Assembly: GCA_965178125.1 (NCBI GenBank)
Contig: OZ237749.1
Location: 744,001 to 808,000, forward strand
Direction of reading: 5' to 3'
Length of the DNA stretch: 64,000 nt
Source of the DNA: Bilabrum cf. latius
Taxonomy: Eukaryota
The notes under the pieces were generated by a model that did not search any database, was not told the DNA's origin, and saw only the letters and a program-made list of their open reading frames with translations. The translations under genes were made by a program, and so were the position numbers. Below, in pieces: positions 4,484 to 59,634 of this stretch (position 1 is the stretch's first letter; every line of letters starts with the position of its first letter).

Positions 4484-5809
4484 TCAGAAAGTATGCATAT
4501 TGAGCTCTACGGGCACCTCGGCGGCCGGGGTCCCTGCGTCCCTGGCTGCCCCGTACACGATGTCGACAGGCGCCCCGTCTGCATCCAGTGACCTCCTCCC
4601 AGCCTCAAGCACCGCGGTCGTCTGCGCAGTGGTGTGGATCGTGGCCAGCTCGCTGTCGAAGTCCTCCGGCTTGGCATCGCCGCTCCTCACCAAGGAGGCG
4701 CAGCGGACAAACTCGGAGATTGACCTGTAGCCGTACCCCGTCTGTCCGCTGAACGCACCGTCAGTGGGAGTGTACTTCATGAACAGCGGGTTTACGGAGG
4801 CATACCCAGAGGCATCGCTCGCGTGTGAGTATCCCCTGTGCGCCTGATCCACCCTCACCTCACCACTTCTCGTCATGACGAAGAACCTTTGCTGGCTGTG
4901 CACGTCGCTTGGGGGCGCCACCCAGCTGGAGGTGAATACACCAGTACCCTTGGCTCCGCTCTTGAGATCCTCATAGTCCACCAGGAGAGTGATTGTGTCC
5001 TCGCATGGTCGCCCGAGCGTCGCATCTGCCACCCCCGTCGCCGCCGACGCCGTCACCCTAACCGGCCTGGCGATGCCTGCGAAGCACCACTCGGCGAAAT
5101 CCACGTGATGGGAGTTCAGGTAGTACGATATGTCGCTCTTGATCCCCGCCCATGCCTTGAATGTTTCCAGCTGCCTCTTCGGCTGTGACATGTAGGAATT
5201 CATGAATCCCATGCTGCCATCGGCCCGGATCCTGTCCCTAGCGTCCACGTACATGGGGTCCCACCGCTTGTGCACCTCAATCGACACCAGAACATTGTGT
5301 TCCTTCGCTGCCTTGGCCAACTCAATGTGGTGCGACAGCTTCATGACAGCAGGCTTGGTAACCAGCACGTGGTGGCCAGCACGGACTGCAGCTAGTGCAA
5401 TGTCGAAGTGGGTATCGTCTGGCGTGAATATTGTCACGCATGATCCAGGTGGGTAGGATGTAAGAGCTTTGTCATATGCTTTGGCGTCCACCTCGTCATC
5501 CCCCGGAAAACTTGCGAATTCGATGTCAAATTTGCTACAAGGGTACGCGTCACGGATCGCCCGCCCCATGTGCTCCCTTATCTTGGGAAATTTCTTGCCG
5601 TTGACCCCAACAATAGCTGTATCTCCGACTAGACCTTTCTTTCGAAGATCGAACACAGTAATTGCAACAACACCTGCAGACTTATCAGACTTCGCACTGG
5701 CAGCTCCAAATCCTGTCGTGTACTCTCCCGATCCAATCATTATCACTGCAGGTGGTGTCCCAACACCGCTGGCAGCCCCTTCATTACCTGTGCCTGCTAC
5801 TCCAGCCAT
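4484..5809 (-). CDS. gaaA: Gfo/Idh/MocA-family oxidoreductase, fungal GaaA-type D-galacturonate reductase-like, 441 aa, intronless
   Basis: Motifs MIGSGEYTTG, SDKSAGVV, TIFTPDDTH, HVLVTKP, EVHKRWDP, SYMSQPKRQLETFKAWAG, SDISYYLNSHH and HSQQRF match the GaaA-like family from memory. Ends in TGA; no in-frame TAG. Confidence 0.85.
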   Translation of the reverse strand: MAGVAGTGNEGAASGVGTPPAVIMIGSGEYTTGFGAASAKSDKSAGVVAITVFDLRKKGLVGDTAIVGVNGKKFPKIREHMGRAIRDAYPCSKFDIEFASFPGDDEVDAKAYDKALTSYPPGSCVTIFTPDDTHFDIALAAVRAGHHVLVTKPAVMKLSHHIELAKAAKEHNVLVSIEVHKRWDPMYVDARDRIRADGSMGFMNSYMSQPKRQLETFKAWAGIKSDISYYLNSHHVDFAEWCFAGIARPVRVTASAATGVADATLGRPCEDTITLLVDYEDLKSGAKGTGVFTSSWVAPPSDVHSQQRFFVMTRSGEVRVDQAHRGYSHASDASGYASVNPLFMKYTPTDGAFSGQTGYGYRSISEFVRCASLVRSGDAKPEDFDSELATIHTTAQTTAVLEAGRRSLDADGAPVDIVYGAARDAGTPAAEVPVELNMHTF

Positions 5810-5892
5810 AATTGTTGCTCACAAAAAGCTAAAATTCTCGGCAGCAGAGGAGTAGACCTCTGCCAGAATACCAGAATAATTTGTAGGATCTG

Positions 5893-5943
5893 CAGTTGCA
5901 GTTCTGGGGGGTTCTAATAGTTTGTAATTCAGTTGCAGTTCTG
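5893..5943. repeat. 14-bp direct repeat CAGTTGCAGTTCTG, two copies, in a divergent intergenic region
   Basis: Exact copies at 5893-5906 and 5930-5943, each shortly after TTTGTA. Confidence 0.7.
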
Positions 5944-6103
5944 CCGATATCCTGTAACGTGTAGTTATGGTCTAGATCCGATTTTATTGAATTCGCAGTC
6001 GGAGACTGAATCGGTCGACACGGTTGGATAAATCTCCCCAACTATAACTTGACTGCTATTCAATAGTAGCCAACGACACGATTGCCTGGCCGCATCGTCA
6101 TAA

Positions 6104-9100
6104 ATGTCGTCTGGATCTGATTCCGTAAACACCCTTGCTGGTCAGGTTGGGTTTGCATCTCATTTGCCTCAAAGTTTGGCTCTCACGGGCCCTGAAAGCA
6201 TGAATGATGCTATATTTCTTGTTGACTAGCTGCTGGCGCGCGTCAAGGAAAAACGGTCCATGAATCGACTGACAGGCCATCCCGCGAGGGGAGCGGTAGC
6301 CACTGGTCCATCTATGGCAGCTGCAGCTGGAACTGCGGCATCTGCTTCGGCCGCTGCCAGCGCTCCCAAGCGATCTAGTTCTGAATTTCAAGCAGCGTCA
6401 CGCCTTGATGAATCCGACGAACTGTGGACTGCTGGACTTGTAGCTGCGGCGCAGTGGGCACTGTACAACAAGAGGTCCATTCGAGGCAAGTTGCAGGATT
6501 CACGGCACATGAAGGATGCTAGGCGTTTATGGAGGCTTGATGCATCGCTCCAGCGGCTCCTGTCTTCTTGTGATTTTGCGTTGCGGTAGGCGAGGACTAC
6601 AGATGCCGGTGGCAGTCCCGAGGGTCTCGGCAAGGCTGCTGCTGCTGCTGTTGCCAATCACAGAAGTGGAAGTGAAAACTTTCCCCCTGCAGGTAGAGCA
6701 AGGTCGTCAACTCAACTTGACTTTGATCCTATTGGAATGGCTGCCGCTGATGCCCTTGGGTTGGATGGGGCTGAATAGGCGCTCGAGAGCCAAGGCCCAT
6801 TCGGATCAGCTGCGGTCTCATCGGCAGATTCTAAACAGGTAGGCATCAGTGGCCCAGCCAAGCCAAATCATGACATTGCGCTTGGCATAGCTATTGATCG
6901 CCGGCGCGGTCGCAACAGGGCTAGCACGGAAATCGGACTCGGGACTGTGGCTTTGCTGCAACATCCCGCTGTTGCCCCTGCGCCCACTGCAGACGTCCAC
7001 GCCACTGAGCCAACAAGCACTGCTGGCACTCTCCAAACCATCAACAATTCATCTACGGAAGCTGGAGCTGATGCAGGTGCTGATGGGGCTACATTCGCCG
7101 GATAGGACGCGACTGGCCGTGGCCCTACTGCTGCCGGGGGTCCGCCTCCACCCATTGCCCTGGCGTCCATTAGAGCTCAAGAAGCGCATGCAGATCTACC
7201 AATCGAGTCATTTAGTGACGCATCCTCTGAAGCGAGCAGCCAAGCCCGCTCATACCGAGCCCCGCGAGGGAGCATGTCGGAGTCTATTAGCCACGATGAA
7301 ATGCTGAGAGCTGATCAGCTCGCGTTGGATGAGTCAGTGGCTCTCAGGGTCATGCATGACGACGGACGCAACGAGCTAGGGCCCGATGCAAGTGATGCTG
7401 GATTCGCTGGTATGGGACTCCGGGCCTCTGATCTTCCCCCCGAGCTGCTTCAGGACCTTTTTGCCGCGACTGCAGTGGCCGCCCGTGAAGAGGAGGAAGA
7501 AAGCCTGCAGTGGTCGATCCTTGCAAGCTTGAGATCCGGTGGTACAACATCAGACAATACATAGTAGTTGGGAACGTTTGGTAGCAGGCATGAAAGCTCT
7601 ACGGGGCTGGATCCTAGCAGTCGGCAGCATCGGCCATCCTTCGATGCGCAGCAGATTGAATCTGACTTCCAGCTAGCGCAAGGCGGCTCCAGCGCGGCCT
7701 CCGACAGATCTCTGGGAGACGCAGCCTTGCATGCTGCAGTTGTGCACATATTGCATGAACTGCGTGGACCACGGCGAACGAACGCTTCTATGTGCACCGC
7801 GGCAATTGGCGTGTCCAATTATGCTCGCATGCCCCACGCGAACCATTTGTTCCAGGTTATGGGCGGGATAGCTGAGCTACTTTCGATTGCACTGAAGCCG
7901 TTTGAGAATGCATTCAATGGTAGTGGTGACGAAAATGTTGCAAAGGGACGCAGTGAAGCTCAGCACGATCTTGGATCAGGTTCTGCTGTTCGACATGGGC
8001 TACGCAGCGATGCGCAGCCCACCTCTGGCGCAGGGGCAGATGAAGCAGGGTCTCGCGCTGCAGCGATGTCTGCAGCAAACAGACCATTCGACATGTTTAA
8101 TCATCATTGTTGCTCGCATGATGATGCTAGACTTGCCTACTTGGCAGGAAAGGCTGCTCTCGATCTGCTCGCAACGTGCAACCCAATTGGATTTCAAGTT
8201 GTCAATCCCGTGAGGCTGTTTCTGTGCCTTCATATGGTGCACGCACTAAGCTCGGCTGGACCGAAGCAAGCTGCATCATTCTCAAGTCAGCGGGATGGTT
8301 TGCACGCCGGCAGTTCTACTTGCACATAGGTGGCCGAGCACGGTAGCCCATCGTCACCAACAAGCGTCTGGCAAGTATGTCAGACGCTGAAGCATCTCTA
8401 CGTGCCTAGCTGTGATTCTTCTGTCGCTGAATCTGTCGACAAGTTGAGCGGGATGTATCCAGACGGAGTTCAGGTTGTGATGACCGTGATCGGACGAATA
8501 TTCGTTGAGGTGCCTAAGGTTGGTCAAGGGGTGCCAGGACCAGACACTCCAGTCGCTGGAAAAGCATCGGGTGGTTCTGACTAGATTCAACCCGGTTTTA
8601 ACTTCTTTGCGTGGCTTTGGCGGAAGTCTAATGGAATATCAGGCAGAAGCGCTGGAACTGCGAGGGTTTTGGGCGGCGCAAAGCAGCGGAAGCCACTGCG
8701 GGGCCTGCGCTCTGCGTTGCTGCCTCTTCTCGTACAGATAGCTGCAGCCAGACCCCGCTTTCCCAGCATCGTAGCCGCACGGTCCGCTTGGGACCGGGCG
8801 CTTGCAGCCCTTCCCCCGGTATTACGTCAGAACGTCGCCCCGGATCCGGTCGCGGCGGGACGATGGGTGCAGGCCGAGTACAGCCTGGTCGATGCACAGC
8901 GTTCTGCCTGCGCAGTTCTAGAGCAGTTCTTGAGACAGCACTCCATGAGCAAGCTGCTGCTTGCATCTGGTGTTATGGAGGTGATTAGTTCTTGTCTTGC
9001 GAGCTCCTTTGCCGACCTGCAAGACGCCGGCACTCGGCTTGCATGCTACTTCTTGTCACCGTCGGATCGAATGCCTGCCCTGCCCTGGATCGATGACCTG

Positions 9101-12100
9101 ACGAGTAGTTCGTTTGGCTCCGCATACGGCGACGATGAAATCCTGTTGGAATCCGAGCAATGGCCGTAGAAACTATTTCCGACGAAATTTGGCGCCTTGC
9201 AGCTGGCTCCATTTTAGATGGCAGATTTTCAGGCAGAGTCAGTTGACACTTCCGAGCTTTGGGCATCTTCGTGTTAGCTGTCTCCTCCATTGTCAGCCAT
9301 TAAGCAGCTAGTGAGTTGCGAGTCTGCAGAAGAACTCCACTCGCTGGCGTTTCAGCTAGCCGGACGTGTGGGGGTAGGAAAGTCTATGGTCACATGGATC
9401 AGCGAGGTAGTGCAGCCGGTCTCTCCCACACGGCAGTATACGGATAGAGTTACGGCAAGTAGTGAGGCTGATGTTGATAATGGTGCTACAGATGACCTTT
9501 CTAGCGTTTCAGAGCAACGCACGATGGACAATTCTAGCGCTAGAAGAAGCCAAGTTGATAGCGAAGGGCCGTTTGCATCCAATGCGACATTTGTGCATTC
9601 CATTGTGGGTCAAAAGCGAGTTATCCGGCGCAGTGCAGTCACGGGTCACCACTTGGATCAGATGGTGTTCATTTCAGCTGCTATGCTTGCAGATCGAGAG
9701 TTTAGAGCAACTTCACTGCGCGCTGGCCTACCGGAAGCCTTGTGCGCAGTCATGCAGCTGCTGGGTAGTTCAGCAAGCCATCTGGTCTTGTCGCCCAGGC
9801 AAGGCATGAGGCGCCAACGCACAGCTTCTGAACTTGTCGACGATTCCGGTGACGAGGAAGGAGGTCCTGAGGCTGGTGCTTATGGACCTAGAAGCAGGTG
9901 TAACAGTAACGGAATCGACAGTTGTGTTGCTGGATCAGGTGCTGGATCAGATGGTACTTCCGATGCATCCTAGTCTGATTCGGGGTCCTCAGACGCAACT
10001 GACAGCAACAGTGTCAATGCGATGCGGTCAAGAAGAAAGGAACTGCTCGTCAGACTTCTGCTAGGAGGAATTTCGTCCAGCTGTTAGTTCTATGGGTCGT
10101 ACAGCGATGCAGGAGCAGCGGACCAGGTCTCGCCCGAGCAAAGCGCCACTATTGCTGCCCAAGCTGGCGTTGTTCTTAATGGAGGAGTCTCGCGGCTTAT
10201 ATCTGCCATTGAGCTGTATCGGCGGGCCGGGTCATTTACGATGGTTCTGCTTCGCGCATTGGCTTGTCTCGCCAGGCACAAGCCATTCGCTGACGTCATT
10301 GGTGACTAGGGCGCGGTGCCGGTGTTGTGTCGCTTGGTGGAGCACGCTAAATAGAGCGAGAAGGCTATCATGTGGGCAACCGCTGAGGTTTTTGCGTGCA
10401 TTGCATGCGCTTCTCTTCCGTCGCGTCGACTACTGCTGACGAAGCGAGCTCTCAACTGCACGTTGAAGATCATGCGTTCCAATCGATCGGAGAGCGCTGA
10501 CGTCATCCAAACTGCACTTCGTGCACTTTCTCAACTCGCCATGATTCCTTGCGAATCGTGCTCCTCGAGCTGTCAGATTATGGATTGGATGATGGGTGAC
10601 GATGATGCGACGCGGGAGGCGCAGGGCAGGCTGCAGTCGATCTGGGTGTAGCCACTGCCTAGTGCAGCCGCTAGTATTGGCGATGCACCGCAATTGGATC
10701 GGTCAAGTTCGACTGCGTCATCCAAAGCAAGAGAGTCTGACAGCCACCAAGATGGAGAGGCGCGTCGGCGTCGTGGCTCGCTCGAGCTGCGTGATGCTCT
10801 GAAACTGGAGGTGGATGCTGCTCTTGATCTCGCCAGGCTCTCTGAAGCTGGCCAAGCCAGTCGCAACCCAGCAGCTTCCGTTTCAATGATGCAAGGAGAC
10901 CAGTCGAGTGGTTTGGAAAGTGCAACGGGTTTCGAGCCCATCTATGATGATCACCTTGGACTCATCTGCGCGATGCCAGCAGAGAGAGGAATGCCGAATG
11001 TTCCCGTGCACCCCCTCCGATTCTGGAAAGTGGAGACCAGCGGTGTTGGTGCAGCTGTCAGGCAAAGAAGGTTTGATTGCCCAGACATTTGCCTCAAGTG
11101 TGGGAAGGGCACAGCCGATTGCATTGAGTCTATCCTTGGCACATTCTCTACGATGGCATCTGCTGCTGCCAAGATGAATGCCTTCGATTCGGTGAAGGAG
11201 TGGGAGGCCTCCATGCAGGGTCCGGCCCGATAGAGTGGTGGACCATCATCTGGAGCAGGTTCTCCGTCCGCCGCCGAGCAGTCAGCTGCCGAATAGCCCC
11301 CACTCTTGAGCAAGCTCTTTGCTGGCGTCGGCAAGGCACCAAAATGGGATAGCTTGGCCAAGAGACTCGCTGGTGCTGAGTGTGCCTAGCCTCGCGGTGA
11401 TGCTGAGCTCGTAGACAAGTCACGCGGTCCGCGCCGTATGTCCAGCACAACTCGCATTGGAACTATGCAGTCCAAGTCGGCTATAGAAGGGGTTGGATTT
11501 TGGTTCAACAGAAAGGAGGCAAGTCGTTATGGTATTGCACCGCTTGCTGCTCTAGCCTTGTACTGGCCTTAGCTCGGGCACGACTCCATGTTGTCCGCCA
11601 TATAGCTCCTGACGTCGTTTAGTGTGACACGAAAAGCTCGGAACTACATTGCTGCAGGTCCGATTTTGTAGGCGTTGCAACTATGCTCGAGATCGGGCAC
11701 CCCTGAGGTGCGTGAAGTGGTATCGAGGCTTGCAAACAGAGTTGGTCTCCCGAACGGTTATGACTACGTGATTAGGGCAACACGCGGCAACTTAAACGCA
11801 GTAAAGTGCTGGCTTTAGTGTGCTACATCACTAGCAAGGTAGCGAAGGTTTTGTACAAAGCTCGCGCGCAGAACGAGGCGGGCGTGGGAGGACCGCCGAA
11901 CATCGCGGCGGCTGCGCTGGAGTCGCTTGGCACGTGTTCGCAAAATGCTGAAGGTGCCAAAACGATACGAAGTTGCGGCTTCATTGCAACAAACTCGATT
12001 GCCTGCTTCTCGTCTAGCTTCGGCCGGGTTGTATGCTTCAGTCTACGATGCCATCACCAGCCAATCAAGTGGCGCGGGCTAGACCAGCGGAACCAGTGCA

Positions 12101-15100
12101 AGCTTCATTGCGAGCACTTGGAAATTACACGTTAGCTCTGAACTGACACGGTTCTTCTCTCAAGGTGCGAGCATGTTGCATGCCCGTGCTCCAAGTAGTT
12201 CAGACCATGGAGAACAGCTGGCTACCCGTTTTGACCGAATCACGTCCGGGCCAGCAGCGGCTGCCTCGGCGGCTAGCCACGTGCTACACTCGCACCACCC
12301 CCTTGCAAGAAGATCAAGAGGCATAAGTCTGCTCGCCAAGCTTCAGCAAGCCTCATCGACGACAGCTTCCTCGTATCGAGCAGCCCTGGTGTCAGTTGCA
12401 GCGACCGGAGCGGAAGCTAGCCTTGACGGCGCGGGGTCTGCGGAAGCGGTTTCGAGACATAGCGGTAGGCTTGGACAGACTATCGGGAGCAGAGCTTGGA
12501 GCCATGATTCTCATGAAAGTGGCGGGGATCTATTGATACGAGATGCCCTGGATGAGACTTCGTCTGAGGAAGAGTGGGCCGATGCATGTGAGGCCTGGTG
12601 GGAAGCTGAGGGCAGGCTGCTGTACCAAGAAGAACAAGCACGATTGACTGGATTGCACGACGGTGGTATGGATCATGATTCTCCATCTACTTCCGATACA
12701 AGCTCAGGAAGTAGCGATGTCGATACCAGCGGGGGAAGCGATGACAGCGCGGCAGATGTTGCCAAGGTTCCGGCCAGCGATGCGACAGCCCATGCCTCAA
12801 CAGAATACGACGGCTGGACCATGGTATCAAAGCAACCTCTCCTTCGTGCAGATAAGCGCATGTACTCTCCATCTGGCGCCTACGCTGCACCTGACCTGAA
12901 CCACGATCTGTTTGAGATTGCGCCGTCGCTTGTGTCGGTGTAGTAGGGGTATCAGACTGACGATGATAGGGAGCTACACGCAGAGTGGGGCCTCGACGAC
13001 CGCCGGCGACTAAACGAGGAGTATGGATCGTATCTTATCAGTAGGCAGTACTACGGTCCATTTGTGCCTTGCCCAGCCACAGAATCTTTACAGTCGTCGC
13101 CTGCCGTAATCGAGTAGCTCGCCAGATCTGCATCGCGCATCCTGTCACGAATTCGGCAAGATGACCTAGAGAGATCTGCAAAGCTCCGTGGTGATTCATA
13201 GTCCAGCGTGGCAATACGCGCACGTGCCATCTTGATGAGCTCTATATTCGGTATCGAGCGTGATGAGCGCGTGCTGCATCGTGTTGTAAAACTCGACTCA
13301 GTCGACCACTTGGCGCTGCTGGAGGACCTCGCTGTTCATAATATAGGTGCGGGTCCTGACGGCGTAAGCCTGTCGCCTGCTCGTAATCGAGCTAAGTCAA
13401 GCTATGGACCTCGCCACTCCGGAAATGTGTCAGCTGCCAGTGGTTTGTCGAGCAATGCAACCCACACCACAGGCGCGGACGATCAAGCCTCGAGATCACG
13501 AGGGGAGTCGTCCCCTGTGCAGCGGAAGCGAGCTCGAGTGATGTCATGCGATGCGACTTTAGAGGATAGCGATGCTGAGCACTATCTTGAGCGTCAAGTG
13601 GGTTCAGGACTTGTTCACTCTGTGCTGGAGCGAATGCTAGTACTGTGCCCTCATGGGTATGAGCGGATGCTCCAATTTTGTCCGGATGAAGAGTAGCCAG
13701 ATAAAGTCAATGTGGGCACCCTGGGCGAACTCACCATGCAGGTTTATGAACGTTCATCTCGACTGCAATCTACCCATGAATTATATAGTCTGATTTAGCT
13801 AGCTCGCTGCTTGGCTGGACAGCCACTGGGCCAGAGGACCGATTGGCATTTGGCATTGCGAAGTTCGATTCTTGAGGGAGCCGCTGCACACCAGGTCAAA
13901 GATTCTGTCTGGAGATGCGCTCCACTGATCACTTCCATCTGTCTGTATGGAGGTCGCAGTCATAATCCACGGCCACGGATGGATAGATAGCCGTCCGTAT
14001 TATCGAAGGGGGAGAGTGGTTCCAAACCTTCCGGAACCGACCGTCAGCCACAGGTACTACTGGATTTGCCTCCTAGCATCCGTTGGCTGGTGCTGGATAG
14101 TACCCGTCCAGAAGCTGCACAAGCAGCGGTGGAAGTCTCTGTGCCTCTATCGTGGTCAAGCGCATTCCAGTACAGTCTGGCGATGCATGTACCTGCGCTC
14201 AGGTCTCGAGTAGTGCAGCATCATTCAACACTGAATTGTGCCCTTCCATACCCTGTTTTTCTGCTTCGTGGTATTGTCGGGTTAAGCTGCCGCTAGCAAT
14301 TCCTAGGCGCAAAGTGGTGCAAACGGCTGTCTGCCCTGATCTTGCGTAAGAAGAAGTATTTCTCCGTTGCAGTGCAGGACGGGTTCATGCATGCATCTGG
14401 GGCAGTTCATAGAGCAACCTCTAGTGCAGCTGACAGATTGGGGGAAGCAAGAGGTTCGTTTGCGTCCTCATCTGTGTCGCATAGAAGATCATAGTCTGGT
14501 GCAGCTTTCCGGTCGAGAACAGAACCCTCAGACGGTACTGCATCGGATCTTCGCACTGGCTTTGTAATACCGCAGATGAAAGTAGATGAATTTCTGGCTC
14601 GAGTTCGCAGTACCAGTGCAGCAGACAATTCGAGTGCCCTGTCCGAATCTGCTGCTGTCGCGTCTTCAGCCGTAGGCCACCGAGGCAGCGCGCACACCGA
14701 CGCAGCCAAGTACTTTCCGCGGCATTCCTAGGTTAGTCGGCTATCAGCAGCCTCATCGCGGAAGCAGTCTGATCCTGTGGTCCTCGCGCATCCAGGTAGA
14801 GCTGCCGATATTGCAGCCTTGGCAAAGCTGCCTCAGCTGGTACTGCCTCCGGTGCCCAGCGTCCGTAAGTCGCACCACCTCCTTTCCGACTTGTCTGCTT
14901 GCGAATTGGGTTGCAAGGATCCGTTTGATCTGCTACAGGGGGCATGGTTGGTGCCACTAAAAACCACGTAGCGGATGAATGCGCTCAGTGAAAGCTGGGA
15001 CCGCATGAGACCTGGACTGGCACACGTGGATGTTAGCTACAGCTACGGCCTTAGACACCTAGATCTGACCAAGTGCTCGCTGGGTGATGAACTAGCGGCC

Positions 15101-18100: not shown

Positions 18101-19351
18101 AGCCGCGGTGTAGAGTTCAGCAAGCTGCAAGCTGCGTCCGGTAGGCCTGCCCCGATCCATACCGATCGCTCGGCTGGTGAGCCTTCCCGTAGCACCTTGT
18201 AGGCTGCGAACAGGACTGATTGTGCGGACAAACCGATGCATGGCGCCTTGGCCCGGGTGAGGGCGCAAGATACCAGTCGTCGCAGCCGTGCGTGGACCGA
18301 TACAGAGGTTGGCTCGGCTGCGAGCCCACTTGAGCTGGATCGGGTCGATGGGACTGGTCGTCGACAGTCCCATTTCCCTAGTACGGCGGTCCCACCAGAC
18401 AGGGCGCACTTTGGCAAGTCTGTTTCGGCGCGACCAGGCGAGGAGCCGGTTGAGGAGCTAGACCGGATGCAGCTGGTTGTAGATCTCTTGAAAGATAGAC
18501 GCTGCATGCTCGTGCTTGACAACTGCGACGCGCGAGACGACCATGAGCTGCTTAATGTTGTAAAGCATGTTACGCAGGCTGCCACAGGTGTTTTGTTGCT
18601 TGCTACTCGTCGGTACCCCTTCGTTCCGACGCTTTCAGACAGTTCGCTGACGCCGCAGGACGCTGAGGGCAGCAAAGGTGCGCAGGGCTAGCATATCGGA
18701 GCCAGTGCTGCAGTCTCACCTGCAAGTGGCCCGGGTATGTCACGTATATCTTCTACGCAGTGGTGGCCAGATGAGAAAACGTACCGCGTCGACGCGATGC
18801 CACTGCACGACCTTCGAAGACTAGCTGAGCGAGTCCTCGGGCGCACGGGTCTTTCTGCCTTGAACGGCGAAGGAGGCCTTCAATTGCTACACGGACCAGG
18901 CAGCGATGATGCTCGAACTGACACTCTTGATCGCATGGTGAAGTCTAGCGGAGGCAACCCTCAAAAACTTGTGCAAGACGCCGAGCAAATCAAGAAGGCA
19001 TGCAGCACCGTCCAAGTTGAGCTAGATGAGCACTTGACGCCGAAAGACACGGGGGAGGCATATTCCATGCCTGGGACTAGCGGAGCAGTAGCGAACACCT
19101 GGCTTGAGCAAGAGAGGCTGCAGGTCCATGCAGCTGCAGCTGCTGTCGGCGCCCAATCCCAAGCACCCCGCGCCGCGAACCCGAGCATGAGACAGGTCAG
19201 CACAACTTCAGAAGCTCCACAACTTGGTGACATTGGCGACGGGACGGGTCTAGCAGAAGGCAGTCACCGGCATGCTCTGGGCATACCATGGACACCTTTG
19301 AAGCCCGCCGGCGTGTCTGATGGGGAGAGCAGTGGCGGTTATGGGCAATGA
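6104..19351 (+). CDS. Giant intronless protein, about 4,415 aa: UIM/MIU-like motifs, ARM-like repeats, RI-type LRRs, CHAT (caspase-like) domain, STAND/NB-ARC-like NTPase
   Basis: One frame from ATG 6104 to TGA 19349-19351 with about 50 TAGs and no TAA/TGA in the gaps I read between track ORFs. ARM-like IGD*GAVPVLCRLV; LRRs LRHLDLTKCSLG, LLSIDLSVNEIG, LRALHLTDNSL, LTVLDLRENRIG, LRELQLQGNRL; CHAT VLVLSGH and VIISMCQS; Walker A GHA*IGKST; Walker B MLVLDNCD. Confidence 0.85.
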
Positions 19352-19515
19352 CGTGGGACTCGCTTGTACACAATTTGCAGTCCGTGTGATTTTCAAATTT
19401 GGATTTGTCTATAATTTTTGACCGGAATACAATTTTATGTTTATTGTTGGTCTTTCAAGAGGCTCTTAGTCGCTCATCTAAATGCCTGTACCAGTCCGCG
19501 GGGCCCGAGTGCCTC

Positions 19516-48500: not shown

Positions 48501-51500
48501 AGTAGCGTTACATTCGTTCGTACGACGGTGCAGCCATCAGTGACCGTCACGATGAACATGCTCTCGCCCAGCACCGAGGGCACAAACTCCAGAAAGAAGC
48601 CGTCGTGCGCCGAGCTGGCAGGCAGGCGCAGGCCCGGGTCAGTGAAAGACACGTTGGGGGCGGGCACAAGAGCGGGTACGGGGTTTGCCGGCAACATGAC
48701 GCGCGCTGCGACATCCGTGCTCTCCAGCGGACCCACGAAATCCAAGTACTCAAGGGTGAGGTTCATGCCACCCAGGTCGCCCTGAAAGCCAACGGTACCC
48801 GTCGCGTTGAGAAACACCGGATTAAATGCCCGAGAAGATGCATTCCAGCGGGTCACCAGCTCGCGAGAGGTCAACACAACAGCAGGGGCCGCGGGACACT
48901 GGGACACCACCTCAACCTAGGTCGAGTCATCCGAGCAGCGATCGCTGGCCTTCGCAGTGGCACCCCACCGCCCCAAGAACCTGGGCGTCAGCGACGCAAC
49001 GCCAGATGTACCGCCGCTTGCGAATGCGGCTGAGTCGCCCAGCGTGATGTTGTCAGGTGCTAGCACCTCGGGCCGGAACGAGTACGCGTTGATATCGTGC
49101 TCTGGCGATCCTTGGGCCGGGAATGGCGACAACGGGACAGTGTCAGCCGTGAAAAACTGGACAGAGTCAAGCTCCCAGGTGAGGTCCAGGCTATCCTGAT
49201 CCGCGTCGGTGCTCGTAGTCGCGTTAAGTGCCACGGAAGAGAATCCCAGGCCCTCCCATCGGCTCGTGTACGTGGACTCAGTAGACCCTGCATCTGGTTC
49301 CGCATTACAAGTCACCACAAACACCGCATCATCGCTGCCGTACCTGCAACCATCGTCAGTCACGTACACTACGCGATACATGCCACCGGCCCGGGGTGTG
49401 ACCCGGATCGTGTCGATCAGAGCTACCGAATCATTATTCATAGTCTCGCTCACATTGGTCCAAAGCGGGGACTATCCGCTACCGGAAACCGTGATTGTCT
49501 CAATCTCAAAACGACCGCGGCCGAGCAGAGCAGACGCGTTGTAAAGCTATCCTGAGTGCCCACCGCCATTGACAGTCACAACCGCATCTACGAGTAGCTC
49601 CTCGAACACGGTTCCTGTCCAACTCACAGACACCGGATCACCAGTCAACGGGCTCCCGGTCATGTTGCTGCGCAATACAAGGCTGACCTCAGGTTTGGCA
49701 GGACAGGTACTGCGTATCACAACCGCTTCACGAGCAACGGAGCATCCGTCCGAAGCAGTCAGCTCAACGACTCGGCTACCAGCCGTGTACGGGGTGAAGG
49801 TAGCTACGGTACCATCACCTGCCATGGCAGGCACGCCGCCTTCAGCTTCAGATGCGTTGCCCAGCACTGGATCAAGCACAAACGACCCATTGGTGTCGTT
49901 CCGCAACTGTTCAGGCAAATCATCACCCGTAGTACCGTTGGACAAAAGGGGCTGCACGAACGAGCCGTCAAGCCCCTCGGCCAGATCGCTTCCAGGACTG
50001 GCGAAAGCACGGCCCTAGGCAGATCGCCATCGAAGGAGCGTGGTACCGGTCTGGTTGTCTGCCACCTCTACTTCGATGTCTCGAGAGCCAAACCCTTGCG
50101 CTGGTCCCATCCAAGCCAAATCAATGACATGTGTTACCCCTTCACCGAAGCCGAGGCTGGACTCAGTGCTCGTATGGAGGAATCGGATCGCAGGTGGGGC
50201 GTCGCAGGTGACCTGCACAGCAATGCTGTCGAAGCTGCCTGAGCAGCCGTCGTCGGCGGATACGCTGAAAACGTACGTGCCAACATGGGCGGGTCTGACC
50301 AGCTGCCTGGACGCATTGCCACCTGCGATGGCAACAGCCAAAGGTGCCAGCTCGTCTTCTACCAGCATGAGGATGTCGGTTGGGATCTCAGAAGTTGTTC
50401 CAGTCACTGGCATACCCTGGCCTTGGTCAATATCATCCTCGCCATCCGCGAAGGCAATCGTTGAAAGCAGCCCCTGCAGAACCTCGCCATCAGTGGGCGT
50501 TCTCATTGTGCCGTTGATTCCAACCAGCAGAGACTCATGCACGTACAAGGCACCATTGGGAGGCACAACAAGGACATCGAGCACGCTAGCATCGTCAGCA
50601 ACTGCCTTCGTGCTGTCTGGAAGCACTGCAGGGTCAAGTCCGATGGATCCATCCGGCACGAAGGACTCATCCGGTGCGGCGTACGACACAAGCTACCAGT
50701 GGAACCGCAGCACGTCGTGCTCTACGTCATAGCTCTCAGTCGCATCCAGGACGATTGCGGGTAGCGTGCCATTGGAGTCGGGGAAATCCAGCGGCGTGTA
50801 GTTGGCTGGCAAAGTTCCATTATTGAACGCCGTTGCATTGTCCATGTGCTACTGGGCCTCCTGCTCCGCCGCGGCGACAGCCTCAAAATCTGCGCCATAC
50901 TTCACAGCCAAAGCCTCGTCTTCCGTGCCTGCTTCCCACCCTGCCAACTGAATAGCAACAAGTTCGTCACTTGCATCGATGCTTCCGTTTGTGCCACTTT
51001 CAGCCGGCCCCGCTCTCGCTCTAGCCATCGGGGTACTCGAGCACGCCGAGATGACAGCAGCGTGCACTGTGTCAAACGAGCAGCCATCGCTCACCTTGCC
51101 CTCCAGCAACCAAGCCCCAAGGCGCGCACCGGCAACCAGTGCTTCTGAAGCAGCGATTCCAGCATCCAAATCGTACCCTACGCCGCTGAGGGGGCTGTCA
51201 GACGAGCCGTGAAGCAGGTCAGAGGGGGACCACCCAGGCAAGTCAAGGTCAGCGAACCCGGCATCGGCAGCCACTTGCGGGGGGAGCACCTCGGGTACAA
51301 AGTAGGAGCTTTGATCCCTGCGATGGAGACCTGAGGCAGGGTCTGCATGGTCAGCGGTGAAACCATGGGCGTAAACGTTGCCCGATGCATCCATGGTTCC
51401 GTTTGAAAACGAGTAGACGTACGCATCGGTAGCCACCGAATCTCCGAGCCAGTCGACAACCGACGAAGGCATGATCGAGTCAGCAGAGACCATCGGCATG

Positions 51501-54500
51501 GCAGACGCGTTGTTGATGGCTGCTACTGACAGCAACGGGGCGTAATCCACCAGGGTCCAGTTGAACCTCAACCGCTCGCCCTCTGGATCCGCGCTGTTGG
51601 ATGAATCCAGCAAAGCGTACGCAAAGTCTCCGAGGCCCGTCGTATCCGTGTTAGACGAAAACTTCAGGTCATTGGCGGAATCAAGGTCCACCTTGTAGAC
51701 TCGAGGGGATCCAAGCAAAGCCGTCAACTCCACATCAATAGCGAGCACGGTTCCGTTCGTCGTTTCAATGTAAACGTCGTCAGCAGAAAGGGCCCCCGCG
51801 GTCGACGCCTCGATGGACCTCGAGGCGTTGAAACCCGTCCAGATGGAGGAAACAATCGCCGTCTCATTCGACTGATCGGGTGCTTGGCCTCTGGCAAGTG
51901 CAGCAGTAGAGTCCTGCGCTGCCTCGGCTGCTGGTGTCTCGGAACACACGACTTCGATGCGGATATCGGCAGCGACGGAAGAGCAGCCGTCAGACGCGTC
52001 CACGGAGAAGTCCCACGTTCCCACACTCTTTGGCGCGAGAATCGCATCTCCATCTGCGGTGGACACCAGCTGCGTGTCATCGTCCTGCAGAACAGCCTCT
52101 TCCGTGTTGTTGGCAGGAGAGACAGGCAGCTGGAATGCATCTGACTCAACGGTGTACTCGATCGTAAGGAAGTCTCCGTCTGCATCCGCGGCGGCGGACG
52201 AAAGCTCTACGGGCTCAAAGTGAGACCCATTCCAGACGCTCTGAGTGGCTGCGCCCCCAGCACCCGTCCGCAGAAGGGGCGGGGTGTTGCAAGACGCAAA
52301 CACCGCTGCCTCATCCCTCGTGATGCTGCAGCCATCAGAGACAGCCAGGTTAAACGAAGTGCTGCCGAGAACGGTAGAGGTCGCAGTGGGCGTCGATGTG
52401 CCGTCCCCTGTTATGGAAGCCGACACGTTCCCGATCACGTCCTGCTCGAATACGAACGTGATGTTCTGCTTCGTGCCCAGCGCGAAGCCCTGGTCGACCA
52501 GAGCCTGTGGAATGTCAAACTCTGCCGTGTACTCGGTGTCTGCCGAAGGAGGCGCAAAGAATTGGTCGTCGCCGTACTCCCACTCAAAGTTGTAGGGAAA
52601 CCCAAAGCGATCAACCGGAATGTTCGCTGAGAAGGAAGTCGACTGGAAAGCACCGGTGGTCTTCGTCGGCCTGGACCACTAGCTCACGATGTCTTCCCCG
52701 GCGAAGACGTTCGGTGGCTCCGGGCACTGGGTGGTGACTTGCACCTGGGCCTCCGCCACCTGGCACCCGTCAGTCACCTTGAGGGTCGCGTTGTACGTGC
52801 CGAGCTTCCTCGGGCGGAATGACGGCGAAAGGGTCTGGAACGGGCCGATGCCGTATCCGAGCTCTCGAAGCGTGTGCGGCTGCTCCCTGACGCACAGCAA
52901 GCGCCGCTCGACAGAGCAGTCAGAGGTGCTGAGAGAAAATCGCCCTGTACCAGTCTAGAAAGGGCTGCCGATACGCGTGTCAAGGCTGGGTGAGCTGCTG
53001 TTCCAATAATCGCAGAGCTGCTGGGCGCCTGCTCCGGCGAGAACGTTGCCTGCCAGGTCACAGCCACCAAAGATGCTGATGCCTGTTCCAGCTCGCAGCC
53101 GCCTCCCGTACTCGTCGTACGCGATCACGCCATTCATCACAGCGCTCTGCCACCGCTCCACACACTCAGCCCCGCAAGCAACCTTGTGGTCGGCACCCGC
53201 GGCGGCCCACTCGCGGTAAGCACCCCTGACCTGGCCGGTAGAGTACACCGGGAGCGTGGAGATCGACCCCCTGGACCACCCGCTGCCATGCGATCCTGGA
53301 TCGCAAAGAACAGCCACGAACTCATCGTGGAACGGAAGCTTGGCAGCGCGAGCCCGAGCCTGACACTTGGCGTCGGCTCCCTCGATGCCGCCCAGCTGGC
53401 CCGAGTAGAGCTCCGAGGTGACGAACGTCTCGTGGATGCCACCATCAGTCTCTGACCCAGTCAGCGCAGGGATGGGGTCGTCCGCTCCGATCACCAAAGG
53501 AGCATTGCTGAAGGAGTCGCCGGAGGGCTAGTGCACCAAGGACCACTCAAAGCGGAAGGTGGGAGCGTCACGCGACGCCTCATCCGCACTGCGATCAGCT
53601 GATGCGTGGGACATGGTGCCATCCAAGGTCACGACAGGGAAATTACCAGTTTCGCCCAGTTCCACCGTGACATTCATGCCCGCATGTGCGAGCGGGGGGT
53701 CATTGCACTGCAAGACCGCCACGGCATCATCGCTGGAAGCCACGCAGCTAGACGATACCACGTAGCTCGACACGTACTGGCCTTGCAGTGCCATGCCAAG
53801 AGCCGAAGCGTCGAATGGCGCGCTAAAGTTGTAGTTCTCTGCAGCGATCTCAAGCTGCGTCGATGCCGTGCTGGGGTCGGCGATTCCTGCACCGCTATCT
53901 CCGCCGGCCAGGGCGGCAGCAATGGCGGTGCCTGCAGGGGCTGAAGTCGTGCGCCAGTTTGCGTCGATTCCGTCCATGTTCACAACAAAGAGAGTCTCTC
54001 CGGTAAGGTTAAACCTAGAGATGCAGTCTCGGGTAACATTTCCAGCGTCGCTTTGCGAGCACAGCACAGTCTCGAGCTCGCCGTCTGCATCCTCCATGCC
54101 GTCTCCAACGGTGCCTGCCGTTGCAAATCTGGACCCGATTCGCTCGTTCCAAGTGACGATAGCAGGGGATACGGTTGCGTTTGCGCCTGGCGACGAAGGA
54201 CACTGGGCCTCGACCTTGACCTCTGTGTTGGAGGCGCTGCAGCCATCGCTCACTGTGAGACGGTAGGTGTACACCGTTGCGACGGGAAGGCCATTCGATA
54301 CGCCCGCATCCGCATTGATCTCAGCAGCAGGCACAGTGAGAAGGACAGCTCCTGGCGTCCCGTTGATCGGCATCGTGTACACTGGTGCATCTGGCAGGGC
54401 ACCGCCATAGGAAACGGACGAGCCGAGAGAGGGCTGCTCCTCGCGCACCAGCTCCCACTCGTAGCTAACGATATCACTCAGCCCGTCGGGATCATACGAG

Positions 54501-57395
54501 TAGCTGCCATCGAGCACCACCGGTGCAAACGTGTTGGCGGGCGAGATGGAAGCGGCTCCGGGGGAGGCTCCCACGAAGCGGTAAGATTCATTGAAAACGA
54601 CCATCTGATGTGCCTGCGCGGCGGCAGCGCGCGGGGGCGAGTTACAGCGGACTAGCACTGCAATCTCCGTGCTGCTAGATGAACAGAAATCGCTGACTGT
54701 TAGCCGCACCCGAAACACGCCGCTGGCGGTCGGGCGTAGCATCGCTTGGCTCGTGTTGGTTCCAGTCTAGACAAACGCGTCGGTCAAGTCGGCAACCGTG
54801 GGCTCTGAGGGAAGCCCCATCCCGTTCAACGCACCAACAGGCACCTCGACAACCTCCCAAGCGAACAGAAGGTACTCGTCATCTGCATCAAAGGAGCCGC
54901 TACCGTTCAGGGGGACCATAGGAAACGAGTTCCCGAGACCGCGCTCGACGACGCGATCACCGCCAGCCAGCGCAACTGGCGGGGCGTTGCAGCGCACGCG
55001 GACTGTCACTCTGTCCGCGCGAGTCGTACAGTTGTCCCAGGTCTGTAGAGTGGCGACATAGTCCCCCACGGCATCGGGCAGCAGCAGCCCAGCTGCCAGA
55101 GAGGAGGCCTGGAGGATGCCTGCCTGCGACTGCCTGCACGCGTCACTGAGGGCGTCTCCTGGGCAAGGGTGCAGACCCATATCCGCGTCGGACCGCAGAC
55201 CCGGACCGACCATTGTACCGGCGTCAATGGCTGCCGACAGGTTGCCGTATCCCTAGGGCCTGGCCTCCAGACGCCACCGGTGTCCTGCAGCAGGCACTCC
55301 TTCCGAGGCGTTGGTGGGACCCAGGTCCGACAGAGAGCCATTCAGCACGACAACTGCTGGGGCTGACCACGATGACGACGCATTGAAAGACATTCCGGCA
55401 GCAGATGTGGCCTAGGGAGGCAGCGGCTCGGACATGCCCACCCCGGTGATGCTTCTCGCAGTCGAGGCAGCCCTCGTTCGCTCGGCAAGGTCCTTCAGTT
55501 CACCAGGGACAAAGTGCGCCAGCGCGTTGCCAACAAACAAAAGCACGTCACCGCCAGCACCGAGAGCTTCTCGAGCTGCATCAGTGGATGCCTGGGTCCC
55601 ACCAGTGACGCGACCACCCTCCGCACTGCCGACGGGGGAGTCGTCCGCGCGAGGTACAGCCACACCTCCACGTGTGGGAATGGCGCGAGCGACTGGAAGG
55701 AGCTGTCGGGAGCACGATGCAGTGACTTGCACTGTGTCATATGCGATCCCACAGCCATCCGTCATCACCAGACGGATCGTGTACTCACCTTCCGCATCCG
55801 GCTGGAACATTGTCTCTGGGGAGTATGCCATCGCGACGCCTGCCGACCCCCCCTGAGCCGCGAGAGAGAGTTGCAGTCTGGCACGCCTTGCAGGAGAGGT
55901 TCCATCGATCGTCTCTGCCTACCAGCGCCCCGTCCGCACGGCGGAGGCCTCGGGTGCACCGATGATTTCCCACAGAAAGTCGGTCAGGTTGGCGGCGAAC
56001 TAGGAGGACGCAGCGGACAGAGCCACCTGCGGGAACGGGCCATTGCCGTGGTCGTACCCAGTGCCCATGGAATCTGCGCTGCCCACCATCACATCGGAGC
56101 CCGCATCGGCCACGAGCTCCCCGCCCTGGCCACTGCCCCCACACACGGCAGTCACAGTTACGGTGTCCGTGGAGGCAGGGCAGTCGCCCCTCTTTGCCTC
56201 CAGCTAAAGGACGTACTCGCCGGGAGTGTCCGGCCGGAAATGCATCGTGCCCAGCGGGGCGGCGTCAGGAACGACCAGCCCCGCGCCGCTGCTGGGGTCC
56301 ACAGTCGGGGCGGCCACGTCCCTCCTGTGAGCGGCGGACTGGGGGCCCACGGCGATGCTGGACTCGGTCGGGGAGGAGAGCACGGTCCACGTGTACCTGA
56401 CGGGGGCCCCGCCCCGGAGGAGGGCAGAGGACTGGGCCGCCTCGATCGCGCGGGCGGCGTTTTGGCTGGATCCGGAGCCCAAAAGCTCGTCCTCGGCCGG
56501 GATGGTGCCCGAGGGATCGAGCTCGACTAGCTCGAACTGGCCGGTGGAAGCATTGAACACGGACTGCCTGTCTGCTCCTGCCGCGGCTGTGGGCGCGTCT
56601 CCGCACCTGACCTCCACACGGACCGTGTCTTCGAATGTTTGGCACCCGTCAGACGCCCGTAGCGTCACAGCGAAAGTTCCTTCCCGCGAAGGAAGAAACG
56701 ATGCGGCCAGTGCTCGTTCGCTGTCCGATGCTGATGCGGGCACGAATGGGTTTCCAGGCCCGTGCATCAAATTTGGAGCGACACAAACACCAGCACCCGC
56801 CAAAGATGAAGGAGATTGAGTCAGGTCGACGGCTGCGAGCAAGTTGAAAATAGACTCGAATGGGTCGGGTGAGAGGTTGTTCTAGAAGAAGGAGCAGGAT
56901 CGCACTTCACACGGTCGAGGTCACTGGGTATCCCAGAAATGCACCCCGATCGGCGAATATGATGTTATTCAAACATCAGCAAAACAGCTAGCATCGTAGT
57001 CTTGAACGTTGGTACGAGGGCTCACATTGCACGAAGAACCGTCGCGATGCCACTGTGGACGTCGACCCGTTGCGGTACGCCTGCGCGGCTACTGTCACCA
57101 TCCCAGTTGCGTCAATGGTAAATGGTCCGTTGTATGACATATTCGTCGCAGGAAGCTCGCTACCCCTGCTGATCCCAACAGATATACTTGCATCGCCACC
57201 GGTTGGACCATCAACATAGATTTTTGTCGAAGGGGACAGGAAATACCCGCTCGGGGAAATCCTCGGAGGAGCGACCTACGACTTGGCCCCGATAATCATT
57301 GAAACGCCCACGATAACAGCGAGAAGTCGGTGGAAGCCGGCGCATTGCTTCCCAGAGCTTTGACACGGTGGATCCCTCGCCTGGAATAGGCGCAT
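39563..57395 (-). CDS. Giant type I membrane protein, about 5,880 aa: signal peptide, Fn3-associated-like domain, about 25-30 PKD/KIAA0319-like Ig-fold repeats, DUF1554/endostatin-like domain, TM helix, Gly/Arg-rich tail
   Basis: 22 track ORFs from 39563 to 56842 share one minus frame; the breaks I checked are TAG and the final stop is TGA. Repeat motif F.P...G.Y...L.VSDGC...D.V.V...C; GGIEGADAKCQARA; TM FWAAAGICIAIACVVVVIIAALLIV. The best-fitting intron 56833-57025 links to an exon with a signal peptide. Not every gap was read. Confidence 0.82.
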
Positions 57396-57526
57396 TCCGA
57401 CCGGACAATTTGAGCGAGACAGCTTGCTCGGTATGCAAAGAAAGAATTTTAGGTGTTGCTCGGTTTGCGCGTTCGAACAACGTGAAGTTCTTTGCTCGAA
57501 GGCAACGGACGCATGGCAGTTTCACT

Positions 57527-58150
57527 ATGTTCCGCAAAACTGCGCGGCGCCGAGTAGGTCGCTCGGATTGGTCGCACTAGATTTGAGGCAAGAGACTAAG
57601 AAGTCTATTGGCTTGACGTGCGTGTGTGTTGTTGTACGTGCCCCTAGTGGCGGAACACGAGCTGCAGTTGGTCATGGTGTCGCACGGTGCTGTGCTGAAC
57701 ACTCCAGGGACGCCTTTAGAAAAGGGCTACCACCCAGAGACCTGTTGGGCGGGTCGAATAGCTGCGTTAACATTATTAGGATCTTTAATCCGCGTGTTTG
57801 CATGGCTTGCGGCGGCTTTGACTCACCTAGCCCCGCTGCAGTGGGCAGATAGCTTTGCTGCGGTGTTTCAAGTCGCCACGATTGGTGTGGGGGCAGCCCT
57901 ACAATTGAAGATGCCACCAGCCGCGCTGTCATTATTGGCTGCAATTTTAGGAAGCTTGGCTCCCGTGGTACTAGGCCAGCTTGTTGGCGCAGCCACCTCT
58001 CCACTTGGCATCGGAGCAGTTGCACTTGCAGCTGCTCTTCTTGCGGACTACCTCGCGCTGCTTACGCTAGATTCAGTCAGCAGGAGAAAGGCTTCGCGAT
58101 TATTTTGTTGTCAGAGGCGAAGACAGAGGCTGAATGCTACGAAAAGCTGA
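57527..58150 (+). CDS. Small multi-pass membrane protein of unknown function; start uncertain (ATG 57527 with a possible intron 57554-57667, or ATG 57674)
   Basis: Track ORF 57626-58150 has about four hydrophobic segments and a basic tail, ends in TGA, and fills an otherwise unusually large gap. Confidence 0.5.
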
Positions 58151-58285
58151 TCTGATTTATTGAGGGCTACTCGGCGAGAGCCGTCTTGTTAACGCTAGTC
58201 TTGTTGTCATGTATACACGATACTCTTGGGGGGTGCTGTCCACAATTCTCGCACGAAACAGCGACAAACGCACTGAATTCACGCC

Positions 58286-59634
58286 TCACAGCCTGACTTT
58301 GTCTGCCACCTCGTCATCCTCAGGGTCGGAACCCTCCCCCACCCCGACGGAGAGCAGCCGCTTCTGGAGGGCACCGACCGCCTTGGGCGTCACCACCAGG
58401 ACCCGCGCCTTGAGGATGTCCAGCGGGTTGGCCTGCTCGGCGAAGCACCACTTGAGCCGCTGCAGGTTGCCCGAGGCCAGCTCAAAGTAAGGTGTCATTT
58501 CATCGGGAGCCACGACGAGCATGGCGGGCACCTCGCTCAGCGGGAGGGCCTCCACGGCCATGCTGCGCACTTCCTCCAGCTGGCCCGACGCGACCATCCC
58601 GGCGGCGTCAAACTCAGCGCCGCCTGCAGCCGCATCGCCCCCTTCCTCTGCCTCTTCCGCCTCTGCCTCTGCCTCCTCTTCCTGCTCCTGCTCCTGCTCC
58701 TCCGCCTCGATTTCGTGCATCAGGGCAGAGCGAGCCACCGAGGCCAGCGGGGCACTCCGCCCCCCCTCGGGAAGCAAACTGCCTTCCCCGGTGCTGCGAT
58801 CAGCGGCTGGCACCCTAGTCTCTACGCCAGCGAGCTTCTCGAGGAGGTCCCTGGTCTTGTGCGAGGAGAGATCGTCCACCCCCGAGAGGACTATGAGCCG
58901 GCCGTCGCGTCTGCGGCTGCTCAGCACCACACGCATGGCAAGCCCTCGAATCTTCTTTGGCAGCTAGGTGTCCCACTCTCTCAACCTGGGCGGGTGTGCT
59001 TTGCCGCCCCCCACCCAGATGGGAGATCGGATGGAGCCATGCCTGGAGCGCCCGGTGCCCTTCTACCTCCACGGCTTCCGTCCCCCGCCTCGGACTTCGC
59101 CGCGCTTCTTTCCCTTATAAAGAGTCTTTCTCCGCTTGTTTCGCTGCCATTCTACTACTCTGTGTACGATATCCTGCCTGCATGGTACGTCCCAAACGTC
59201 TTCGTGTAGACCAACAAAGCCAATTCGCTCCCCAGACTATAAATTCATGATGGGCTCGTTAAGCTCGGTTGAGAGCAGTGGCTAGGCACTTCGTTTAGCA
59301 TCCTTATGACTTGCTGCGTTCCATGACAGAGGAGGGTGCGCATCGGAACAAGTAGTGCACTTGCAACATGGCTGCGTGGCCCCGGGGGCTGCGCGCGGGT
59401 GATCTCACCTACTTCGCTCGAAAACTCTGGTGCAAGTACTCCCAACTCAGTCATACTCAAGTTAGGAAGTACATCCACACTATTTTTCGTTGCTTGCGTC
59501 TAGATAGAGCGCAAACACCCAAGGGCACTTGATGCCCGACATGATGTAGTCTCTGCGATGATTCCACCAATTACAGGACGTGTCAACGGCGACAGTACTC
59601 GATAGATGGTTGATGGTCGAAATGAGCGACTCAT
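58286..59634 (-). CDS. MRPL4: Mitochondrial ribosomal protein uL4m, about 417 aa; exons 59634-59409, 59313-58286
   Basis: [63 protein letters not shown] and NPLDIL. Arg/Ser-rich N-terminus resembles a mitochondrial presequence. Intron 59314-59408 (GTGAGA...CGCAG) is inferred. Ends in TGA. Confidence 0.93.

Follow-up and report, generated by a model that had tools for sequence, protein, structure and literature searches.

The 64,000-nucleotide (nt) stretch of Bilabrum cf. latius DNA analyzed here (GenBank assembly GCA_965178125.1, contig OZ237749.1, positions 744,001 to 808,000 of the forward strand; hereafter the window, with position 1 as its first letter) uses TAG as a plain glutamine codon with no dual meaning, does not use TAA as a sense codon, and closes each of its complete genes with TGA. 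The same pattern is seen in L001, a distant relative recovered from a metagenome contig. With confidence only slightly above even, we favor a code in which UAG encodes Gln, UGA terminates almost every gene, and UAA is a still-recognized minority stop. A preliminary description of the window, made from the letters alone, had proposed that UAA is decoupled from UAG in this DNA and that termination is dominated by UGA. Both proposals hold: UAG is an ordinary Gln codon while UAA is excluded from reading frames, and UGA ends 10 of 10 complete genes in the window and five of five in L001.

The effect of the code is apparent in the open reading frames (ORFs) of the window, which has a G+C content (GC) of 58% across its 64 kb. 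Under the standard code, an ORF scan yields 111 ORFs of at least 150 amino acids (aa), totaling 24,831 aa. Reading TAG through raises the total for ORFs of this size to 47,122 aa and brings out two ORFs that are absent without readthrough, one of 4415 and one of 5785 codons (counted from stop to stop), while the additional readthrough of TAA has a near-zero effect on ORF yield. With TAG translated as Gln, the window resolves into 12 closely spaced genes of eukaryotic content on both strands, two of which are cut by the window ends and 10 of which have a visible stop. The window is a piece of a nuclear genome that is compact, GC-rich, and poor in introns, from a little-known microbial eukaryote, and gene callers that assume the standard code split the genes of this organism into pieces.

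Across the 12 genes (19,303 codons) there are 156 in-frame TAG codons, no TAA, and 10 TGA, all of them terminal. TGA is thus found only at gene ends and TAA never in frame, so that neither behaves as the ambiguous stops of other codes do, where a terminator is also read as sense within frames. Outside the reading frames TAA does occur: 140 times in the other two sense-strand frames, 181 times in antisense, and 104 times in 6,091 intergenic bases. From the off-frame density, ~70 in-frame TAA codons would be expected in the window and ~96 in the window and L001 together; if TAR codons were used like CAR codons, the expectation for the combined set would be ~110. The combined count is 226 TAG and no TAA in 26,455 codons, so that TAA makes up at most 1.3% of TAR codons (95% upper bound). 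The statement of the preliminary description that no internal or terminal TAA is present therefore stands for the whole gene set of the window (0 of 19,303 codons and 0 of 10 ends).

L001 was obtained by scanning metagenomes with the TTC39 protein of the window, and was the one relative among 74 pattern matches; scans of genome contigs and viral contigs returned no further relatives. It covers 22,730 nt out of a contig of 36,151 nt, and its TTC39 protein is 58% identical to that of the window over the whole protein. Its genes follow the order seen in the window (the orthologue of a 4415-aa gene, TTC39, PPIL2, a conserved 1204-aa gene, and a Ser-rich gene). L001 has a GC of 57%, and its five genes hold 70 TAG and no TAA in 7,152 codons and end in TGA in five of five cases, the orthologue of the 4415-aa gene included. 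Proteins of the window and L001 are only ~60% identical, and third-base agreement is 27.7% at the 864 four-fold sites whose amino acid is the same in both, vs. 25.3% expected by composition. Silent sites are therefore saturated, and the five gene ends of L001 are fresh draws if TAA and TGA are interchangeable. As L001 shows, the code trait predates a split deep enough for synonymous saturation.

The meaning of TAG was read from the five window/L001 orthologue pairs. Where one member of a pair has TAG in a well-aligned column, the other has Q in 24 of 44 cases, vs. a Q background of 2.4%, and the TAG substitution profile is best fit by Gln (log-likelihood −80.8), with Lys as the runner-up at −140.1, a gap of 59 log units. 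At conserved Gln columns TAG pairs with both canonical codons and with itself (CAG-TAG, 19; CAA-TAG, 5; TAG-TAG, 2), alongside the pairs CAA-CAG (17), CAG-CAG (18), and CAA-CAA (5); none includes TAA. In the mitochondrial-type ribosomal protein uL4, one TAG takes the place of the invariant residue in KPW.QKGTGR, a conserved motif whose central Q is present in all three mitoribosomal chains compared. TAG is not depleted near stops (5/200 in the last 20 codons, the nearest lying ~11–13 codons from the stop), and it ends none of the 15 complete genes.

All 11 stops named in the preliminary description are TGA on the strand given for them. Ten of these close long TAG-readthrough ORFs, and the eleventh closes a doubtful ORF that is taken up below, so that the 11 complete genes counted there are better described as 10 solid genes and one uncertain one. 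Seven of the stops had been said to be followed by G, and the same number is found among the solid genes, 7 of 10 of which end in TGAG; the base after the remaining three stops is C, T, or A. Adding L001 brings the complete genes closed by TGA to 15 of 15 (16 of 16 with the doubtful ORF), and TAA could then account for at most 18% of stops given 0/15 and 17% given 0/16 (95% upper bounds). The claim that UAA is unused thus agrees with the ends seen, whether 15 or 16 are counted, but is stronger than a small sample allows, since a share of up to ~18% would be compatible with it.

How unusual such a set of ends is depends on the TAA share of TAA plus TGA taken as the null, which is 14% from off-frame coding sequence, 19% from antisense, and 33% from intergenic DNA. 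The probability of finding no TAA end is, respectively, 0.22, 0.12, and 0.018 for the 10 window genes, and 0.10, 0.04, and 0.002 for the 15 genes of the window and L001. The all-TGA termini are therefore moderately beyond chance, while the lack of in-frame TAA is overwhelmingly so. Across the whole window, TA dinucleotides occur at 0.62 times the expected frequency, and this TpA avoidance bears on any expected TAA count; together with a TTA:TTG ratio of 36:262, it favors the lower of the nulls. TTA (36) and ATA (93) are the rarest sense codons. GC at third codon positions (GC3) is ~0.6, with a CAA:CAG ratio of 204:413 and 674 GCA codons, so A-ending codons are frequent. In eukaryotes of like GC, about one-quarter to one-third of the genes that do not end in TAG usually end in TAA.

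Contigs from four public runs (X1, X5, X6, and X8) aligned to positions 19301–39300. In X1 the whole stretch lies within a single 69,472-nt record, which may be the source of the window and is for that reason not independent. We infer that the X5 and X8 contigs are transcript assemblies because they are gene-sized, broken between genes, and carry GT..AG joints in the orientation of the gene, a guess from contig behavior, as the run records do not state RNA. The X5 contigs match the genome letter for letter and those of X8 differ from it by a single G>A, and this near-identity means that TAG is not edited away in transcripts. The contigs continue across every TAG, are collinear with the genome across six TGA stops, and end 32, 68, 44, 19, 1, and 23 nt past them (at 19484, 25016, 25010, 29427, 34297, and 38132). 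Ends so close behind the stops leave no room for TGA readthrough, and the six stops are real.

The code that we lean toward can be put in mechanistic terms. A tRNA-Gln with anticodon CUA would read UAG only, as C34 does not pair with A, and eRF1 would no longer act on UAG. Left without a decoder, UAA would be totally absent from reading frames. It would still be recognized by eRF1 and be used in ~1% to 18% of genes, its rarity coming from strong TpA avoidance and GC pressure, possibly with weaker or leakier termination at UAA after eRF1 had been reshaped to reject UAG and the UAG-reading Gln tRNA had become abundant. We infer all three components of this scheme, namely the tRNA, the eRF1 change, and the residual stop function of UAA. 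Composition may push the neutral TAA share to ~14–20%, and 0 of 15 is then not extreme (P = 0.10–0.04). Precedent also speaks for a UAA that still terminates, since each of the UAG-only nuclear codes published has retained it as a stop.

Several points weigh against a UAA that is still in service as a minority stop. No TAA was found at 15 ends, an outcome with P = 0.002 at the intergenic share of 33%, and published UAG-only lineages prefer UAA as stop, unlike the window lineage. GC pressure alone, which the preliminary description had offered as a possible part of the TGA bias, is a weak explanation of TAA rarity, because GC3 is ~0.6 and A-ending codons are common. The decoding machinery is out of sight, as a tRNA scan of both the window and L001 found none, and the eRF1 gene lies outside both the 64-kb window and the 22.7-kb L001. 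PPIL2 lends no support of its own: when its 12 TAG sites, counted over both relatives, are compared with 69 outside homologues, they fall in variable columns or in columns where Q does not dominate, one of them in a column with V in 60 of the 69. This comparison is uninformative rather than contrary. The preliminary description had left a choice between a rare stop and a nearly vacated codon, and both fit the evidence with neither singled out, the sample being too small to tell a rare TAA stop from a codon without a role.

A second account, possible but doubtful in our estimate, is that UAA is effectively unassigned, neither decoded nor efficiently released, with UGA as the sole stop and UAG as Gln. 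eRF1 would then be UGA-specific, as in lineages in which both UAR codons encode Gln, the only tRNA-Gln for these codons would carry the CUA anticodon, and UAA would have been purged from frames and ends alike; the result could be an intermediate on the way toward UAR = Gln or a stable one-stop code. What speaks for a vacant UAA is its absence from all 26,455 in-frame codons and all 15 termini of two genomes with saturated synonymous sites, a pattern kept between relatives of such low protein identity, and the low probability of the termini (P = 0.002) under free exchange of TAA and TGA stops in the proportion found in intergenic DNA. Stop usage is also reversed relative to every UAG-only code published, and Nyctotherus provides a published precedent, with stops that are almost unused and also avoided as sense. 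On the other hand, 15 termini are compatible with a TAA share of up to 18%, and with composition-aware nulls of 14–19% the probability rises to 0.10–0.04, which is not or barely significant. Neither eRF1 nor the tRNA set was seen. To our knowledge, no nuclear code has a truly unassigned former stop codon, and the literature consulted offers no such case, which counts against this account.

It is improbable that the pattern is a sampling effect in which TAA is a common stop genome-wide (in more than ~20% of genes), perhaps in highly expressed genes. The sample is admittedly narrow, with 10–11 gene ends from the window and five from L001, and the five L001 genes are orthologous to window genes, so that few gene classes are represented; cytosolic ribosomal genes and other highly expressed genes are absent. 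However, saturated synonymous sites make the 15 ends independent draws, and the probability that none of them is TAA would be ~0.035 at a share of 20% and 0.002 at 33%.

Weaker still is the reading, very unlikely in our view, that UAA also encodes Gln (a table 6-type code with UGA as the sole stop) and is hardly used through codon bias: TGA is indeed the sole stop seen (15/15), as in the UAR = Gln algae Cladophora and Acetabularia, and UAR = Gln green algae use TAG more than TAA, but there is no TAA against 226 TAG (<1.3% of TAR) though CAA makes up 33% of CAR, no TAA appears in the codon pairs at conserved Gln columns, and an in-frame TAA stands seven codons upstream of the ATG of the spliced gene that ends at 29446. 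As a description of the present state, the table 6 route raised in the preliminary description is contradicted by the count of zero in-frame TAA where ~110 would be expected; internal TAA at Gln columns, which it had held to be capable of overturning its view, was found in none of the window/L001 pairs.

A published argument holds that the use of UAA as the main stop blocks a later move to UAR = Gln. If UAA is vacant and UGA terminates, that block would be removed, and the order of events, with the tRNA first, then eRF1, then capture of UAA, would become testable. Should UAA prove to be unassigned, the lineage would represent the missing intermediate between the standard code and UAR = Gln codes, reached from the UAG side and in a GC-rich non-ciliate. 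A natural eukaryote with essentially one stop and one free codon would also matter for genetic code engineering.

The genes on which these counts are based are described here in order along the window. A truncated gene with 1255 visible codons (1..3765, minus strand) carries 16 in-frame TAG and no TAA, its stop lying beyond the window. It is followed by a 441-aa GFO/IDH/MocA oxidoreductase gene (4484..5809, minus strand; TGA at 4484–4486, next base G), which has no TAG; its protein matches belong to Eukaryota, most commonly Chlorophyta, which is not phylogenetic evidence. The 4415-aa gene (6104..19351, plus strand; TGA at 19349–19351, next base C) encodes an LRR_6 protein, contains 51 in-frame TAG, and has a weak, sub-threshold AAA_16 match near the C-terminus of its product. 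Next come the Iml2/TTC39 gene (910 aa; 19516..22248, minus strand; four TAG; TGA at 19516–19518, next base G), for which a transcript-like contig spans 22658 to 19484, and a gene for a PPIL2-type U-box/cyclophilin (681 aa; 22903..24948, plus strand; six TAG; TGA at 24946–24948, next base G), whose transcript-like contig ends at 25016. Homologues outside the lineage are scarce. A search with the PPIL2 protein gave 87 matches, the best of them 45% identical (Emiliania huxleyi and metagenome proteins), and no close relative.

The conserved 1204-aa gene (25054..28668, minus strand; 10 TAG; TGA at 25054–25056, next base T) could be assigned to no family and has no Pfam match. Its protein is 81% identical between the two relatives (L001 2991–7118, plus strand) despite saturated silent sites, which marks the gene as strongly constrained. 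Among 5.8 billion proteins it has a single homologue, which is 35% identical and carries PF27614; neither its matches nor those of PPIL2 give a clade placement. Beyond it lie the Ser/Gly-rich gene (29446..34034, minus strand, with a plain ORF of 29446–33531; TGA at 29446–29448, next base A), a protein kinase gene (1228 aa; 34298..37984, minus strand; 12 TAG; TGA at 34298–34300, next base G) with a transcript-like contig of 34297–38018, and an acyltransferase gene (PF01553, 419 aa; 38155..39414, minus strand; three TAG; TGA at 38155–38157, next base G), past which the X8 contig extends to 38132.

A 5734-aa PKD/REJ-repeat membrane protein (39563..56767, minus strand; TGA at 39563–39565, next base G) is encoded with 29 TAG and has a C-terminal membrane anchor and a Gly/Arg-rich tail. 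This gene and the 4415-aa gene at 6104–19351 on the plus strand are two giant single-exon genes. The uL4 gene (320 aa; 58286..59248, minus strand; TGA at 58286–58288, next base G) contains three TAG, and the window ends with a truncated EGF/teneurin-like gene (60025..63999, plus strand) that has 10 TAG and no TAA and a stop beyond the window.

The eleventh gene of the preliminary description is the doubtful ORF at 57617..58150 on the plus strand (TGA at 58148–58150, next base T), which lies inside the largest intergenic gap of the window, 56768–58285. It is hydrophobic, 158–177 codons long, and has several predicted membrane-like stretches, with no Pfam family match. Its codon score is 0.064, compared with 0.08–0.21 for real genes and −0.18 to −0.36 for wrong frames, and the ORF may be the gene for a small membrane protein or nothing. 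Coordinate 59634, up to which the preliminary description extended, holds no stop; a minus-strand TAA is present at 59637–59639, in intergenic DNA. Intergenic DNA was also the source of candidate TAA-ended genes. Among the 70 ORFs of at least 50 codons with at least 60% of their length in intergenic DNA, 18 end in TAA; all are short, none has a convincing coding score, and none was accepted as a gene, though strict exclusion is not possible. The one among these 18 that falls in the contig-covered region, 33752–34012, lies on the strand opposite to the 5′ exons and introns of the Ser/Gly-rich gene.

The transcript-like contigs also place a few introns. GT..AG introns marked by contig joints interrupt the 5′ untranslated regions (UTRs) of the TTC39 gene (22471..22556, minus strand), the PPIL2 gene (22784..22887, plus strand), and the 1204-aa gene (29027..29118, minus strand; joint present in both X5 and X8). 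In the Ser/Gly-rich gene, the spliced model has two 5′ coding introns on the minus strand (33466–33576 and 33651–33824); it comprises 1406 codons and starts in the exon 33825–34034, not at the ATG of the plain ORF (33531). Introns are thus short (86–174 nt) and placed at the 5′ ends of genes that are otherwise intron-free. The 3′ UTRs are likewise very short (1–68 nt), with the contig ends as lower bounds for the mRNA ends, and the PPIL2 and 1204-aa transcripts, which converge, have 7 nt in common (25010–25016). Past the stops, TGCAT, ATGCA, and GCATT words are enriched 3–4 fold, and TGCAT is found in 6 of 15 80-nt flanks (10 from the window and five from L001), which makes words of this type weak candidates for a 3′-end signal; in the same 15 flanks, no AATAAA-like or TAA-containing motif is prominent. 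Region 19301–39300 is present in X1, X5, X6, and X8 with 0–1 differing letters under four organism labels from four 2025 studies, and the organism may accompany other cultures or samples. The DNA runs X1–X4 contain the window at 100%, X7 is grouped with X5 and X8 as transcript-like, and X9–X12, with shares of only 0.07–0.09, do not enter any result.

Known variant codes are compared here on the basis of their published accounts. The preliminary description held that UAA and UAG usually change meaning together, which is sound as a general rule; UAG-only exceptions have been published since 2017, and the decoupling as such is therefore not new. Such reassignments are rare, with fewer than 10 lineages in the published accounts, all with UAA as the main stop. 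UAG alone encodes Gln in Iotanema spirale, Protocruzia tuzeti, Hartmannula sinica, and Trochilia petrani, which keep UAA and UGA as stops. In Iotanema, 119 complete transcript ends are divided into 104 UAA and 15 UGA (126 genes examined, seven truncated). UAA ends 87–98% of genes in five phyllopharyngean ciliates, and the authors argue that it is thereby fixed as a stop. It is also the main stop (56 of 71) in the rhizarian exLh, where UAG encodes Leu, and is kept as a stop in Scotinosphaera, where UAG encodes Ser. Published accounts explain UAG-only codes by a tRNA whose anticodon CUA cannot read UAA, with evidence from Tetrahymena.

Codes with other meanings for the stop codons also differ from that of the window lineage. 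exLh and Scotinosphaera assign a different amino acid to UAG, as does Oligohymenophorea sp. PL0344 (UAA = Lys, UAG = Glu, UGA stop), in which UAA is also sense. In Condylostoma, Blastocrithidia, and Amoebophrya sp. Kv terminator codons double as sense, which none does in the window lineage. Amoebophrya sp. Kv also differs from the window DNA in being AT-rich, in having genes of several exons, and in the in-frame occurrence of all three stop codons. Nyctotherus ovalis resembles the window lineage in having one dominant stop and another that is absent from both ends and frames, a state discussed there as a possible intermediate, but there UAA dominates and no reassignment has taken place, whereas in the window lineage UGA dominates and UAG is Gln. 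Table 6 codes (Tetrahymena/Paramecium, hexamitid diplomonads, and Dasycladales/Cladophorales/Trentepohliales) share UAG as Gln and UGA as the sole terminator seen; they differ in using TAA as Gln, whereas the window lineage and L001 have none where ~110 would be expected.

By gene content and structure, the window lineage is neither a ciliate nor an anaerobic fornicate, and it encodes a mitochondrial-type uL4. The literature searched, which included few subscription journals and no 2017 or 2024 supplements, contained no account of a GC-rich eukaryote outside the ciliates in which UAG is Gln and UGA the only stop. The closest counterpart is the code of Iotanema (table 15), in which, as in the window lineage, UAG is plain Gln and does not terminate, and reading frames are free of UAA. 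The two part at the gene ends and in composition: Iotanema-type codes prefer UAA, of which the window lineage has 0 of 15 against 15 of 15 UGA, in mirror image, and Iotanema-type organisms are AT-rich while the window lineage, at 58% GC, is GC-rich. As far as our searches reach, a lineage with UAG as Gln in which UGA, not UAA, carries termination and UAA fills no visible role had not been described before.

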